Shown one piece after another: positions 37,608 through 41,890 of a stretch of 64,000 nucleotides of DNA. The translations under genes were made by a program, and so were the position numbers. The stretch covers positions 7,317 through 71,316 of the forward strand of contig JANWIF010000012.1 of NCBI GenBank assembly GCA_025450035.1, written 5' to 3'. Numbering within the stretch: position 1 is the stretch's first letter; every line of letters starts with the position of its first letter. Under the pieces are notes generated by a model. That model made no database searches, was not told where the DNA came from, and saw only the letters and a list, made by a program, of their open reading frames with translations. The DNA is from Gemmatimonadaceae bacterium (lineage in GTDB: Bacteria; Gemmatimonadota; Gemmatimonadetes; Gemmatimonadales; Gemmatimonadaceae).

Positions 37608-37930
37608 TCGATGACTTTCTCTCCCTCGACATTCGTATCGGCACCATCATCTCGGCCGAGCCGTTTCCCGAGGCTCGCAAGCCTGCGATCAAGTTGCGCA
37701 TCGACTTCGGGCCCGCGCTTGGCGTGAAGCAATCGAGCGCGCAGCTCACTCTTCATTATATACCGGACCAATTGGTTGGGCGGCAGGTCGTAGCGGTGGT
37801 GAATTTTCCACCGCGCCGCATCGCCAGCTTCGCGAGCGACGTGCTCGTACTCGGCGCCATGCCGTCGGAACAAGAGGTCGTGTTGCTGGCCGTGGACCGT
37901 CCCGTGGAGAACGGCACCCGGATTGGCTAG
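37598..37930 (+). CDS. csaA: tRNA-binding (EMAP/CsaA-type) protein
   Basis: [33 protein letters not shown] pattern. GTG 37598 overlaps the DinB stop. Confidence 0.85.
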
Positions 37931-37987
37931 TGCGCAGAGCGCGCCGCATCCTTGACTTCGATCGTCCACCGGGGTACTTGTTGAATC

Positions 37988-38089
37988 ATGACGATCAACA
38001 CGCATTGCCCATGCAGCATGGTCTGTATGATGTGCTGCGCTGCGGCTACCCATGGGTGGCCGGGCGGACACGTGCATCGCCACTGTTGA
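37988..38089 (+). CDS. Candidate 33-codon leader peptide MTINTHCPCSMVCMMCCAAATHGWPGGHVHRHC (6 Cys, 4 Met, 5 His)
   Basis: ATG..TGA ORF in a 316-bp intergenic region. A C-M-M-C-C codon run at 38024-38038 sits immediately 5' of alternative RNA pairings and a terminator. No SD, so it may be leaderless. Confidence 0.55.
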   Translation: MTINTHCPCSMVCMMCCAAATHGWPGGHVHRHC

Positions 38090-38125
38090 CGTTCACCGTG
38101 ACGACGTGCATTCCGACCGGCCGCT
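38043..38125 (+). promoter_or_regulatory. Candidate attenuator alternative structures (1:2 hairpin and 2:3 antiterminator)
   Basis: 1:2 pairing: 38043-38050 with 38055-38062 (8 bp including 1 G-U, loop CATG). 2:3 pairing: 38056-38067 with 38113-38124 (10 WC + 1 G-U + 1 mismatch). Segment 3 is also the 5' arm of the terminator. Confidence 0.55.
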
Positions 38126-38146
38126 CCCGTAGCGGTCGGTTTTTTT
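38116..38146 (+). terminator. Canonical intrinsic terminator (10-bp stem, 5-nt loop, T7 tract)
   Basis: ACCGGCCGCT-cccgt-AGCGGTCGGT followed by TTTTTT. It is the only hairpin+U-run of this quality I found in the window. Confidence 0.85.
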
Positions 38147-38246
38147 GTCCCGGGGTGCGAACGCGCGCCGGCGCCCGCTGAGAACCTTTCGGACAGCGCA
38201 CGCGTTCGTCACCAGAGCCCATCACCACAAGCACGAGGACTGACCA

Positions 38247-39140
38247 ATGGCAACCGCAACCGCTCCTGTACCGGATCAGACGATTCTCGCCAAGGGATAC
38301 GTCCACCCGGAAGTGCTGGTGTCCACTACCTGGCTCGCGGCGAATCTGGACAACCCATCGATCCGCATCATCGAGAGCGATGAGGATGTGTTGCTCTATG
38401 ACATGGGGCACGTCCCGAACGCGCAGAAGGTCGACTGGCACGCCGACCTGAATGATCCCGTGGTACGGGACTACGTGAGCCGCGAAAAATTCCAGGAGCT
38501 GCTGCGCTCGCGCGGCATCGACGAGACGAAGACCGTGGTGTTCTACGGCGACAAGAACAATTGGTGGGCATCGTATGCGTTCTGGGTGTTCCAGTTGTTT
38601 GGCTTCGACAACGTGCGTCTGCTGGACGGCGGGCGGGTAAAGTGGGAGCAGGAAGGGCGGCGTCTGGTCACCGATGTGCCGAGCTTCCCGCGTACCAACT
38701 ACACGGCGCCCGAGCGGAACGACACGCGCATTCGCGCCTTCCGCGAGGATGCGCTCAGGCATGCGCAGTCCAAGCGCCCGCTCATCGACGTCCGTTCTCC
38801 CGACGAATTCACGGGAAAGAAGACGCATATGCCCGAGTATCCGCAGGAGGGCGTGCTGCGCGGCGGACACATTCCTGGCGCCAAGAATGTTCCGTGGGGA
38901 CGCGCCGCGAACGCCGACGGTACCTTCAAGAGTTCCGCGGACCTTCGTGCGATCTACGAGAAGGAAGTCGGGCTGAAGCCCGCCGATGACGTCATCGCGT
39001 ACTGCCGCATCGGCGAACGTTCATCACACACCTGGTTCGTGCTCCGGTACCTGTTAGGCTACGACACGGTGCGCAACTACGACGGGAGTTGGACCGAGTG
39101 GGGCAACTCGGTACGTCATCCCATCGAGATCGGCGCGTGA
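38247..39140 (+). CDS. Two-domain rhodanese: thiosulfate/3-mercaptopyruvate sulfurtransferase
   Basis: Tandem rhodanese domains and active-site loop [16 protein letters not shown] upstream of ATG 38247. Confidence 0.92.
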
Positions 39141-39589
39141 AAACGGTGGGAGATCCTTCCGCCCAACCGGCGGCCGCGGCGAAGCATGCACCCAACCGCA
39201 TCGAAGTGAACTGGCGCGGCGGTCATCGCTTCACCGCGGGCCGGCCGGGCGGCCCAACGCTGCAAGTCGACGGGGACGGCGTGGTGGCGCCGGGCCCTGT
39301 GGACACCATGCTCGCATCGCTCGCCACGTGTGCGGCGGTCGACGTGGTGGACATTCTCGCGAAACGGCGCACCCCCGTGGCCTCGATGCACGTCGAGGTC
39401 GTTGGGACGCGCGTGGAAACCACCCCGCGCCGCCTGCAGCACGTGCTCCTTCGCTTTCGCCTAACTGGCGACGGCATCGACCCCGCCAACGCCGAGCGCG
39501 CCGTGGCGCTGTCGGTCGAGAAGTACTGTTCGGTTCGGTCGTCGCTGGATCGCGACATCAACGTGGAATGGGAGGTGGAGGTGGGATGA
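39137..39589 (+). CDS. OsmC/Ohr-family peroxiredoxin-like protein
   Basis: OsmC pattern with conserved Cys residues ([22 protein letters not shown]). The GTG 39137 start overlaps the rhodanese stop (GTGA). Confidence 0.85.
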
Positions 39590-39594
39590 AGCAG

Positions 39595-39710
39595 GCACCA
39601 GGCGAGGGCACGAGGGAAGACGTAGGAGCGGGGAATCAGCAGTTGGAACACTCGCCCCTCGCTTCTCGCTCCTCGTACCTCCCGCCTCTTACCTCTCTTC
39701 TCACCTCTGT
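39595..39710. repeat. Family A polypurine/polypyrimidine hairpin element, copy 3 (between osmC and cysK)
   Basis: Purine arm GGCGAGGGCACGAGGGAAGACGTAGGAGCGGGG and pyrimidine arm CCCCTCGCTTCTCGCTCCTCGTACCTCCCGCCTCTTACCTCTCTTCTCACCTC. Exact 19-nt inverted match to copy 2. Confidence 0.55.
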
Positions 39711-39716
39711 TGTCGT

Positions 39717-40673
39717 ATGACGCTCTACCCTGCGTTTTCCATTTCCTCGGCCATCGGCCGCACGCCGATGGTCCGGCTTCAGCGGGTTGTGGAGCCGGAC
39801 ATGGGCGAGATCTGGGTGAAGGTTGAAGGGACGAACCCGGGCGGGTCGATCAAGGATCGGACAGCACTCGGCATGGTGGTCGACGCCGAGGAGCGGGGGG
39901 TGTTGGCGCCCGGCGGAACCATCGTCGAACCCACATCCGGGAACACGGGCATCGGGTTGGCGCAGGTGGCGGCCGCGCGCGGCTACCGGTTGGTGCTTTG
40001 TTTGCCGGCGCAGATGAGTGAGGAGCGAAAGCGCACGTTGCTGGCGTACGGAGCGGAGCTCGTGCTCACCGACCCCGAGCGCCGCATGCTCGCCGCAATC
40101 GAGGAGGCGGAACGCATTCGCGACACGACAGGCGCGTGGATGCCTAACCAGTTTTCGAACCCGGCCAATCCGCGCATCCATTACTTGATGACGGGGCCGG
40201 AGCTGTGGGAGCAGATGCATGGGCGCATCGATGCCTTCGTCTACGGCTCTGGCACCGGGGGCACGATCACCGGCGTTGGACGCTTCCTGAAGGAGCGCGA
40301 TCGTCGAATCCAGGTCATCACTGTCGAGCCCGCCCGCTCAGCGGTGTTGAGTGGCGGCCAACGCGGGGCGCACCAGTTTCAAGGGATGGGACCGGGTTTC
40401 ATTCCTGACAACCTAGACCGTTCGGTGATCGACCGTGTGGTCACGGCGTGGGAAGAGGACGCATTTCCGCTCGCTCGGCGGCTCGCGCGCGAAGAGGGCC
40501 TGTTCGTGGGCATGTCCAGCGGTGCGATTGCCTTCTGGGCGCGGCGCATCGCGCGCGAGCTCGGTCCCGGCAAGCGCGTGGCAATGATCGCCCCCGACTC
40601 CGGCGCGCGATATCTGTCGACGGCGCTCTTCGAGGACGCGGAGCAGACATCGGGACTCGGGACTGTGGATTAG
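39717..40673 (+). CDS. cysK: Cysteine synthase (O-acetylserine sulfhydrylase)
   Basis: PLP-lysine region NPGGSIKDRTA, plus GNTGIGLA and GTGGTITG. Confidence 0.93.
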   Translation: MTLYPAFSISSAIGRTPMVRLQRVVEPDMGEIWVKVEGTNPGGSIKDRTALGMVVDAEERGVLAPGGTIVEPTSGNTGIGLAQVAAARGYRLVLCLPAQMSEERKRTLLAYGAELVLTDPERRMLAAIEEAERIRDTTGAWMPNQFSNPANPRIHYLMTGPELWEQMHGRIDAFVYGSGTGGTITGVGRFLKERDRRIQVITVEPARSAVLSGGQRGAHQFQGMGPGFIPDNLDRSVIDRVVTAWEEDAFPLARRLAREEGLFVGMSSGAIAFWARRIARELGPGKRVAMIAPDSGARYLSTALFEDAEQTSGLGTVD

Positions 40674-40734: not shown

Positions 40735-40971
40735 TTACAGATCGAGTCCCGCCTTCCGCAGTTTCGCCAACACCTTTCTTCGTATCAGATTCGGCGCCGG
40801 ATGTTCGCGACGCGTGGCGGCCACGGCATCGAGAAACGTGCGCTCGAAGTCGAACTGCGGATAACACTGCCGGCACTGGGCCAGGTGGCGATGAATTCGC
40901 GCCATGGCCTCGTCGGTCAGCTCGCTGTCGAGATAGTCCCAGAGTTGTCGCACGACTTCGAGGCAGTCCAT
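40735..40971 (-). CDS. Small cytoplasmic ZAS anti-sigma factor (RsrA-like)
   Basis: HLAQCRQC (H-x3-C-x2-C), 78 aa, no TM, 11 nt downstream of the ECF sigma gene. Confidence 0.8.
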   Translation of the reverse strand: MDCLEVVRQLWDYLDSELTDEAMARIHRHLAQCRQCYPQFDFERTFLDAVAATRREHPAPNLIRRKVLAKLRKAGLDL

Positions 40972-40982
40972 GGCAAATCGTC

Positions 40983-41594
40983 CTAACTGACCCCGGTGCA
41001 CGGGACGCCGCTGGTAACGACGAGGCCGGCATCGCGGGCGTATTCGATGAGGGCTTCCTGCAGCAGGCGTCGGCCGCGAAACAGGCGCGAACGAATCGTG
41101 CCCACGGGAACGCCGAGAATCGACGCTGCTTCATTGTACGCCATTCCCTCGACATCGACCAGCACGACCGCCGATCGAAAAACCTCTGGCAGTTCGCCGA
41201 TGGCGCGTTCGAGCGCCGGGGCGAGATCGAGCCGACTGAACAGATCTTCCGCTCCGTCTCCAATCGCGGCGACGCTCACCCGCACCGCGGCCAGTGTTTC
41301 CAGCTGTGCGTCGTCGCCACCGCAGTCGACGCGCTTGCGTTCGCGCTCGCGCACGCGGAGAAAAACATTGCGGCAGATCGTGAACAACCATTTGCGGCAT
41401 TCGCTGCCGGGCTCGAACGTATGCCAGGAGCGGTACGCGCGCAGGAAGGTCTCCTGGACGATGTCGTCCGCGTCGGCCTCATCGCGAGTCATGGAGAGCG
41501 CGAAGCGGTAGACGTCGTCGAGCCAGGGCAGTGCTTCAAGCTCGAAGCGTTTGCCGTCGACGCGATGGGGCTGGGATTGTTGAGTAGTTTGCAT
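40983..41594 (-). CDS. ECF sigma factor (SigR/SigE-like)
   Basis: Region 2 (DADDIVQETFLRAYRSW, WLFTICRNVF) and region 4 (MAYNEAASILGVPVGTIRSRLFRGR). ATG 41594. Confidence 0.88.
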   Translation of the reverse strand: MQTTQQSQPHRVDGKRFELEALPWLDDVYRFALSMTRDEADADDIVQETFLRAYRSWHTFEPGSECRKWLFTICRNVFLRVRERERKRVDCGGDDAQLETLAAVRVSVAAIGDGAEDLFSRLDLAPALERAIGELPEVFRSAVVLVDVEGMAYNEAASILGVPVGTIRSRLFRGRRLLQEALIEYARDAGLVVTSGVPCTGVS

Positions 41595-41890
41595 GATAGG
41601 AGTCCCGTCGTTTCCAGCGCGGTTCCGCGGGCCGTGTTGACTTCGCGACCCAGCGCCGCCAGATGTTACAGGAGTACCCGGGTCTGCAGGAGGAGTGCCG
41701 TGGCGATTCACCTCCTATCTTCCGTCGTAATTCGCGGCCATCGGCTGAACGGATGGCCGCGTGAATCTATCGTTAGTCGTTCGCCACATGCGGAATGTCG
41801 TTCACCATCTTTCTGCCGTCATCTGCCTCATCTTCACCGCTTGGCTCCACGGCGAGGACGTGATTTCTTGACCCTCATGCGGCCGGACAG

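Follow-up and report, generated by a model that had tools for sequence, protein, structure and literature searches.

A candidate cysteine-sensing leader-peptide attenuator upstream of rhodanese, osmC and cysK genes in a Gemmatimonadaceae bacterium

Introduction

Classical amino acid attenuators such as trpL, hisL, leuL, thrL, ilvL and pheL combine a leader open reading frame (ORF) rich in codons for the controlled amino acid with mutually exclusive RNA helices (1:2, 2:3 and 3:4), a U-tract terminator and downstream genes that make the sensed amino acid. Here we describe a leader of the same layout in a 64,000-nucleotide stretch of DNA from a Gemmatimonadaceae bacterium (contig JANWIF010000012.1; hereafter the window), where a cysteine (Cys)-rich small ORF (sORF) and an intrinsic terminator lie upstream of genes for a rhodanese, an OsmC-family protein and a cysteine synthase. 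We propose, with a probability of about 0.8, that this leader is a ribosome-mediated transcription attenuator which responds to charged tRNA-Cys, perhaps also to tRNA-Met, and sets the level of read-through from an upstream promoter, P1, into rhodanese-osmC and perhaps cysK, a reading that rests on sequence comparison and modelled folds. The trpL-type features found at this locus are a maintained sORF, a cluster of Cys codons, a terminator and an antiterminator that share one arm (the 5' arm of the terminator), the placement of the codons in the window, and genes of the Cys pathway downstream (rhodanese, CysK). The energy balance and the ribosome-position dependence of classical attenuators are likewise reproduced computationally. 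Unlike those attenuators, this one would sense Cys (perhaps also methionine, Met), its sORF is probably leaderless rather than led by a Shine-Dalgarno (SD) sequence, and it occurs in Gemmatimonadota.

Three described systems come closer. In Mycobacterium smegmatis, leaderless polycysteine sORFs have been shown to be cysteine-responsive attenuators (Canestrari et al. 2020, 10.1101/834739), and in the mycobacterial 'Cys ribulon' (Ms5788A, Rv0815A, Rv2334A) stalling on Cys codons relieves repression. In the case that was dissected, control is translational, through pairing of the Cys tract to the SD of the gene behind it, and involves no terminator; the authors leave open whether other mycobacterial loci act on transcription (10.1101/834739). 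The Gemmatimonadaceae leader shares with these sORFs its consecutive Cys codons (C16-C17 here) and a cysteine/sulfur operon downstream, and by its predicted start it would share the leaderless design; the mycobacterial prototype operon also includes a rhodanese gene (cysA2). At the level of design, it differs from Ms5788A in having a terminator and antiterminator, in lacking a stable pairing with the SD (no pairing joins its Cys codons to that of rhodanese) and in its phylum. The second system, uORFC-8-2, is a predicted Cys attenuator upstream of cysS in Rhodobacterales (Brewer et al. 2021, PMC8632094) and has tandem Cys codons near codons 14-15 (16-17 here), with the stem of an intrinsic terminator and a run of U behind them; judged by its description, it is set apart by controlling cysteinyl-tRNA synthetase, by its alphaproteobacterial host, by an SD-led ORF and by a different sequence and fold. 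Finally, Cys leader peptides have been predicted at actinobacterial cys/cbs operons, with a proposed dependence on Rho (Seliverstov et al. 2005, PMC1262725). These ORFs, which came out of comparative genomics, are likewise short and carry runs of Cys codons ahead of genes for cysteine biosynthesis, but they have no recognisable terminator, whereas in the leader described here terminator and antiterminator are explicit and conserved.

Given these precedents, an initial annotation of the window, which knew of no characterised Cys/Met leader in this lineage, overstated the novelty of the leader as to its kind (PMC1262725, 10.1101/834739, PMC8632094), while the phylum and the gene context are indeed new. 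What is new here is thus the phylum, the gene context and the joining of a leaderless sORF to a canonical terminator; the mechanism is classic. Gemmatimonadota are an abundant soil lineage whose gene regulation is almost unstudied, and the literature that we searched contains no earlier description of a regulatory leader from them, which would make this one the first. It would also supply the case left open by the mycobacterial work, a leaderless Cys sORF acting through a terminator/antiterminator switch, and its roughly 20 natural variants, decayed ones included, would form a mutational series for the coupling of leaderless translation to termination. A simple rule for annotating cysteine-responsive operons in metagenomes would follow. 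Conceptually the advance is modest, since attenuation of this type and its application to cysteine are established in other organisms.

Leader elements and predicted ribosome-dependent folding

The leader lies in the 316-bp gap, as read from the sequence, between the end of a csaA-like gene for a tRNA-binding protein at 37930 and the start of the rhodanese gene at 38247. Its elements are as follows, in window coordinates.

37952-37957, forward strand: P1 -35 hexamer TTGACT, matched by TTGAC(A/T) in the same position in each of the 17 related leaders that have the promoter
37975-37980, forward strand: P1 -10-like hexamer TACTTG; family pattern TA[C/G]NNN followed by TT, with position and TA invariant
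37988-38089, forward strand: leader sORF of 33 codons encoding MTINTHCPCSMVCMMCCAAATHGWPGGHVHRHC, probably leaderless, its ATG 7 nt past the -10 hexamer
38018-38038, forward strand: regulatory codon cluster M11-V-C13-M14-M15-C16-C17; CC or C-x-C-C is kept in all family members
38039-38050, forward strand: segment 1, the 5' arm of the anti-antiterminator hairpin, pairing with 38055-38065 (-18.0 kcal/mol)
38054-38068, forward strand: segment 2 (GGGTGGCCGGGCGGA), alternative partner of segment 1 or segment 3, encoding 'WPGG'
38072-38110, forward strand: central hairpin inside the antiterminator, holding the sORF stop codon (38087-38089), from RNAfold of 38052-38127
38112-38126, forward strand: segment 3, shared between the antiterminator (as its 3' arm) and the terminator (as its 5' arm)
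38115-38146, forward strand: intrinsic terminator, 38115-38125 paired with 38131-38141 (11 bp, -18.8 kcal/mol), loop CCCGT, T7 at 38140-38146

Most of this had been described in the initial annotation, and it stands: the size of the gap and the rhodanese, OsmC and cysteine synthase genes behind it; the ORF with 6 Cys and 3 internal Met and a C-M-M-C-C run at 38024-38038; and the two promoter hexamers with no SD before the ATG, to which we add a measured spacer of 17 nt. The three pairings are also present. The 1:2 hairpin (38043-38050 with 38055-38062) has 8 bp, 7 of them Watson-Crick and 1 G-U, and is lengthened by RNAfold to 11 bp; the 2:3 pairing (38056-38067 with 38113-38124) has 10 Watson-Crick pairs, 1 G-U and 1 mismatch; and the terminator, given as a 10-bp stem with T7, has 11 bp in our analysis. 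The remaining Cys codons of the sORF are at 38006-38008, 38012-38014 and 38084-38086.

The energies of the competing structures in the window are balanced, with 1:2 (-18.0) and 3:4 (-18.8) set against an RNAfold antiterminator helix of -37.7 kcal/mol that comprises the 2:3 pairing and the hairpin enclosed by it. Free of ribosomes, the leader folds as the 1:2 hairpin plus the terminator (-66.9 kcal/mol). When a 30-nt ribosome footprint was slid along the sORF and the equilibrium probability of the terminator stem was computed at each step, this probability was 55-98% at all positions save those with the A site on codons 11-18 (MVCMMCCA), where it fell to 0-24%, except for 63% at codon 14. A ribosome on codons 11-18 is thus predicted to switch the window leader to the antiterminator, and this sensitive zone takes in three Cys codons out of six and every internal Met codon (three). 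These footprint folds, together with the conserved elements described below, support the trpL-like model put forward at the outset, in which a stalled ribosome masks segment 1 and segment 2 sequesters segment 3.

From these elements we infer a course of events that runs from transcription start, sORF translation and stalling to the efficiency of termination, the cysteine response and the activity of a second promoter. From P1 (TTGACT-N17-TACTTG), transcription would begin on or beside the first base of the sORF ATG, so that the mRNA would be leaderless. With Cys-tRNA plentiful, the ribosome would cross M-V-C-M-M-C-C and segment 2, which would be covered or would refold with segment 1; 3:4 would then pair and RNA polymerase would stop at T7, leaving a transcript of ~160 nt. 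With Cys-tRNA scarce, the ribosome would stall with its A site on codons 13-17, covering segment 1 and leaving segment 2 open to capture segment 3 once this has emerged, so that no terminator would form and transcription would proceed. If the sORF were not translated, 1:2 and 3:4 would both form and transcription would terminate. Transcription of the downstream genes from a second promoter past the terminator, P2, is also probable; it would escape the attenuator, and thiol or oxidative stress is a plausible trigger.

Conservation and covariation of the leader

The rhodanese gene served as the anchor for comparison. A look-up of its exact sequence gave no match. Among species-representative genomes, the best matches were Gemmatimonadota metagenome-assembled genomes, with up to 72% identity, which have no leader and a different upstream gene; in the protein collection, relatives at 88-73% identity carry the source name Gemmatimonadaceae, which places the window in this family and not in Actinobacteria. 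A metagenome scan with the N-terminal 80 residues of the rhodanese added 80 more loci (numbered below with the prefix L). In a subset of these, a Cys-containing sORF and a terminator co-occur at fixed distances from the rhodanese start, and ~20 distinct Gemmatimonadaceae loci share the leader layout upstream of the orthologous gene. The alignment of the gap with four syntenic contigs shows conservation of the -35 hexamer, the -10-like box, the Cys codons, segment 2, the terminator and a further block downstream; across the orthologous upstream regions, the Cys codons, the segments and the promoter geometry are conserved and compensatory changes occur in the stems. A covariance model built from 18 leaders scores the window at 96 bits and 20 related loci at 53 bits or more, and recovers a locus outside its training set (L092) at 56 bits. 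At gathering thresholds, Rfam 15 has no match anywhere in the window, which sets this leader apart from the classical ones with their Rfam leader families; a permissive scan gave, at best, a sub-threshold match of 20.9 bits against a cut-off of 52 bits, limited to the terminator region.

In a sequence-only MAFFT alignment of the 18 sequences, 91.9% of terminator (3:4) cells are paired, against 61.6% in the best slid control, with 4 compensatory pairs and a score reached by none of 500 shuffles, and covariation thus firmly supports the terminator as read from the sequences. For the antiterminator (2:3), the same alignment gives 83% paired against 58% for the slid control, again with 4 compensatory pairs, and 13/500 shuffles reach the observed score; in the model-fitted alignment, which is biased towards the structure used in fitting, the figures are 85.9% against 54%, 5 compensatory pairs and 2/500 shuffles. 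The 1:2 hairpin, whose region aligns poorly among distant members, has 64% of cells paired against 57% and 6 pairs changed on both sides, with a covariation score matched by a single shuffle in 500. The complementarity between segment 2 and the terminator 5' arm beats 500 dinucleotide shuffles in 16/16 loci (z -1.3 to -4.7). In most loci segment 2 begins 11-15 nt past the CC codons, approximately at the leading edge of a stalled ribosome, and a 1:2 hairpin lies directly 3' of these codons in the window, L081, L085-L093 and L094, with A-U, G-C and G-U exchanges. In L085-L089, the flanks equivalent to the central hairpin lengthen the 2:3 helix by 6-7 bp.

The leader also tracks the gene content downstream. 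Where enough downstream sequence was available, cysK follows rhodanese-osmC in 9/10 attenuator loci and in 5/31 others (Fisher 5e-5, kinship ignored); of the five non-attenuator loci with cysK, one (L117) carries the attenuator in decayed form, and for two the available upstream sequence is too short for a judgement.

Since the one Cys sORF that has been dissected experimentally works by SD pairing, a translational mechanism has to be weighed here as well, in which the terminator 3' arm and U-tract, once freed, would pair with the rhodanese SD and start region, as at mycobacterial Ms5788A, instead of or beside termination. The minimum free energy fold of 37988-38260 does pair GGUCGGUUUUUUUGUC with the GAGGACUGACC region, and RNAalifold of 14 leaders returns the same pairing (GCCG/UGGC and GUUUU/GAGGA; 38131-38146 with 38235-38251 in the window), with 3 pairs changed on both sides. 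Its consensus energy, however, is about zero (-0.23 kcal/mol), which is too weak; the Cys codons themselves are unpaired with the SD; masking of the SD would hit the read-through form and so have the wrong sign; the conserved promoter P2 separates the two pairing partners; and a canonical U-tract terminator is conserved in ~20 loci. We therefore regard translational control as improbable.

Three further loci carry decayed leaders (L117:2316-2423, L105:2311-2424 and L091:705-742), with the U-tract degraded in all three. L117 keeps P1 followed directly by the hairpin, its sORF and segment 2 being deleted, while L105 and L091 retain the hairpin and P2 alone. By their sequences, these loci are natural 'mutants' of the putative switch.

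Leader ORF and its codons

Cys makes up 13.8% of residues in the sORFs and 0.48% in the proteins of the window (29-fold), and Met 7.7% and 1.8% (4-fold). A Cys-rich frame in the window alone would not be sufficient evidence, with 3 of its 224 ATG-initiated sORFs of 20-60 residues (six frames) carrying at least 6 Cys; it is the recurrence of the whole architecture in ~20 distinct related loci that settles the question. Across the family, the sORFs encode 19-42 residues, as in MTSDTRCAKACMMCCAMAAPWRPGGLVHRYC, MSIHRPLFACRSARACMGMCCCAPAGRLGGLVRLE, MSLTMMPSRTGQCMCACCRAAYGWPGGLARSRC, MIEHSQPRRVCCMYMRRPAACVRPDGLAHPM, MSIARMRPCCPHPANGPGECARLV, MRAELCCACTCCYALARRRDEHARMG and MCCSPATAAQRPARVRRRM, and their frame is held across indels in at least 14 distinct loci. 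The Cys codons vary synonymously between TGT and TGC, and Met codons stand near the Cys-Cys or C-x-C-C motif in Gemmatimonadaceae leaders. The sensing of Cys proposed in the initial annotation is thereby borne out at the level of codons, and the sensing of Met is suggested only.

In the peptides, conservation does not extend past the CC (or C-x-C-C) motif and the residues that segment 2 encodes, and in L084 a 4-nt deletion relative to L082 alters the whole C-terminal part of the peptide and leaves the RNA segments intact. Selection therefore appears to act on the Cys codons and on RNA pairing, not on the peptide product. This bears on the suggestion, raised with the original prediction of the attenuator, that the ORF is a free-standing gene for a Cys/His-rich metal-binding micropeptide, or more broadly that the unit from P1 to the terminator is a small gene for a metal or redox micropeptide or a trans-acting small RNA of ~160 nt, with no control in cis. 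In favour of this, the unit comes with a promoter and a terminator of its own, the encoded peptide has many Cys and, in the window, many His residues, and P2 alone could explain rhodanese expression. Yet neither the sequence nor the length of the peptide is conserved beyond the CC motif; the seemingly conserved 'WPGG/RPGG/RPDG/GPGE' stretch is a by-product of translating segment 2, which covaries with the terminator arm; the L084 deletion replaces the C-terminus and keeps the RNA; the unit always lies directly upstream of rhodanese on the same strand and tracks cysK; and it matches no Rfam family. A small gene of this kind, micropeptide included, is accordingly a very unlikely explanation of the conserved leader.

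Promoter P1, translation start and terminator

The P1 spacer is 17 nt in all related leaders with the promoter except L142 (18 nt). The ATG follows the -10 hexamer by 7-8 nt in 11/16 distinct loci, and L142 has an in-frame GTG 6 nt past the hexamer. Because the ATG is so close to the -10 hexamer, no SD precedes it and SD sequences are used by only 22% of Gemmatimonadetes genes (PMC10783764), a leaderless sORF is the likeliest reading, with its start predicted from the sequence.

A scan of both strands of the 64 kb for stems of at least 7 bp with at least 4 GC pairs and at least 6 T in a 9-nt tail returned 38115-38146 as the sole strong intrinsic terminator, so that its description as the only canonical one in the window is upheld for strong sites, with a single marginal 7-bp site besides (46371-46351, reverse strand). 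With canonical terminators so nearly absent from the window, gene ends in this lineage probably rely on other mechanisms of termination, and the one strong terminator stands out by its location in a 5' leader. It remains least probable of all that this hairpin is simply the terminator of the csaA-like gene, with P2 as the sole operon promoter and a Cys-rich ORF arisen by chance in GC-rich DNA: chance sORFs with at least 6 Cys do exist in the window (3/224) and the decayed loci keep hairpin and P2 only (L105, L091) or P1 directly followed by the hairpin (L117), but a conserved sigma-70-type promoter sits between csaA and the sORF, the ATG position, frame and CC motif persist through indels and synonymous changes in at least 14 distinct sequences, and the attenuator is present without csaA upstream in L092, L104, L110 and L154.

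Several observations weigh against the attenuator reading or against parts of it. The P1 -10 element, a weak match to the Escherichia coli consensus, lacks the usual final T, and the start site follows from geometry alone; six members (L082-L084, L094, L162 and L142, the last read from its ATG) have an untranslated leader of 30-39 nt. Covariation supports the antiterminator and the 1:2 hairpin only moderately, because the sequences are related and their near-palindromic GGCCGG core is nearly invariant. Unlike that of trpL, the stop codon in the window lies ~20 nt beyond segment 2, so a ribosome parked there leaves segment 2 uncovered, and termination under plenty would have to rely on the timing of transit or on refolding of 1:2. 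Equilibrium folds of truncated transcripts, used as a proxy for kinetics, did not separate a stalled from an absent ribosome, since 2:3 wins at equilibrium wherever segment 2 is uncovered. For L081, L085, L087, L089 and largely L123, whose terminators are near -25 kcal/mol, termination is predicted at every ribosome position, and for L082 and L084 the folds place the sensitive zone 5' of the CCC codons. Because equilibrium folds thus fail in some relatives and truncated folds do not discriminate, the proposed switch must be kinetic, like that of every attenuator. It is also uncertain that cysK is on the same transcript as rhodanese-osmC, and likewise how it is translated, because a stable hairpin occupies the gap between osmC and cysK.

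Two members with a 39-nt leader have a further feature: in L082:1706-1747 and L094:1448-1489, the frame that opens after the -10 box meets a TGA overlapping the sORF ATG (ATGA), and L094 has an in-frame GTG mini-ORF in this upstream frame. The overlap may reflect coupling by termination and reinitiation, or chance.

A probable second promoter past the terminator

The 14 loci aligned around the rhodanese start share a second promoter-like element, which in the window is followed by the rhodanese SD.

38182-38207, forward strand: P2, an ECF (extracytoplasmic function)-sigma-type promoter, GAAC (-35, 38182-38185), 17 nt, CGTTC (-10, 38203-38207)
38235-38239, forward strand: rhodanese SD GAGGA, read from the sequence and kept in the alignment of relatives
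40735-41001 and 40983-41711, reverse strand, convergent with cysK: zf-HC2 (ZAS-type) anti-sigma factor and ECF sigma factor, respectively, by Pfam matches

The blocks and the spacing of the pattern nGAACC-N16-CGTTC are invariant in all 14 loci, some of them without the sORF, while the spacer sequence varies. Taken alone, one occurrence in the window would carry no statistical significance, and the first G of GGAAC is not conserved. RNAalifold of 14 leaders found no consensus RNA structure over P2. The geometry nGAACC-N16-CGTT is that of the actinobacterial sigmaE/sigmaH promoters, GGAACN-N16-cGTT (PMC10012870), and, as in sigmaE/sigmaH(R) systems with ZAS anti-sigma factors, genes for an ECF sigma factor and a zf-HC2 anti-sigma factor lie nearby; the Mycobacterium tuberculosis SigH regulon includes cysteine biosynthesis genes (PMC4803200). 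From this geometry and the neighbouring sigma/anti-sigma pair, we infer that P2 is a stress promoter that would bypass the attenuator. The adjacent pair may be its regulators, a lead from adjacency and only that, because a P2-like motif was sought upstream of the ECF sigma gene in the window and not found, unlike in autoregulated ECF systems. Since P2 lies 3' of the terminator, the attenuator would govern only transcripts from P1, and the control of the operon by the leader, as first proposed, holds for these and not for transcripts from P2.

Five other Gemmatimonadales loci without the sORF (L042, L065, L075, L026 and L024) have another conserved block in common, TTGACATTCCGAC...CTCGTATTTA, which precedes the rhodanese start by ~60-110 nt. 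It may combine a promoter with the site of a regulator, and would then point to a protein-based alternative for the control of rhodanese.

Downstream genes and their surroundings

The genes that follow the leader are these.

38247-39140, forward strand: rhodanese, a two-domain SseA/CysA-type thiosulfate sulfurtransferase (Pfam PF00581), the first gene that would be regulated
39137-39589, forward strand: OsmC-family protein (Pfam PF02566), its GTG start overlapping the rhodanese stop (GTGA)
39717-40673, forward strand: cysteine synthase A, CysK (TIGR01139, 424 bits, above cut-off)

The nearest entries to the rhodanese in the PDB are sulfurtransferases, among them M. tuberculosis SseA (3hzu) and also 3aax, and the rhodanese-OsmC pair is retained in relatives. 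The syntenic contigs have the gene order DinB, (GT87), CsaA, a gap of ~300 nt, rhodanese, OsmC, CysK and a convergent pair of zf-HC2 anti-sigma and ECF sigma genes; the anti-sigma/ECF sigma pair is also next to cysK in L082, L084 and the P0002 contig.

The osmC-cysK gap is 127 nt, and the region 39575-39712 is nearly all one long imperfect hairpin (-71 kcal/mol, z -2.7) with a purine-rich 5' arm and a pyrimidine-rich 3' arm, which stops immediately short of the cysK ATG; no obvious SD precedes this ATG. In L082-L084, a 13-bp GC hairpin stands at the equivalent position and is not homologous to that of the window.

Within the 64 kb, the covariance model of the leader found no second copy, and a scan for other CC-containing sORFs gave only frames inside genes, so that the window offers no evidence for a multi-locus Cys regulon.

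Related leaders in other lineages

Leaders rich in Met and Cys occur in other phyla (MMTMPLYPPAVCCPTCCC, MSEKTSSQKFMCCMCA and MMIIMICYCCCKN). Although this is less likely than not, these and the Gemmatimonadaceae leaders could belong to a broad and uncatalogued class of sulfur-amino-acid attenuators in which Cys and Met codons are read jointly, recruited repeatedly before SseA-type rhodanese genes (and cysK) in the unrelated Gemmatimonadota, Chloroflexota and Gammaproteobacteria, and standing in Gemmatimonadaceae in series with a thiol-stress ECF promoter. If this tentative view were true, a single operon would integrate sulfur starvation, through the ribosome, with thiol or oxidative stress, through the ZAS anti-sigma factor. 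Hints in its favour are the 4-fold enrichment of Met in the sORFs and the position of all internal Met codons of the window inside the sensitive zone. Tested crudely, the look-alikes from Chloroflexota and Gammaproteobacteria had no significant complementarity for an antiterminator, and they stand as candidates only.

The Chloroflexota rhodanese orthologs concerned are preceded by Cys/Met-rich sORFs and U-tract terminators (MMTMPLYPPAVCCPTCCCTQRF..., MMTVMLYPAMLCGGPC... and MSEKTSSQKFMCCMCA...), and a similar sORF-terminator arrangement is found in a gammaproteobacterium of the Cellvibrionaceae (MMIIMICYCCCKN) and in another Gemmatimonadales lineage. Together, the look-alikes of these lineages are at L022:402-548, L023:2258-2393, L030:2238-2378, L071:2108-2226 and L034:2288-2454. 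In those from Chloroflexota, the ATG is again 7 nt past the -10 box.

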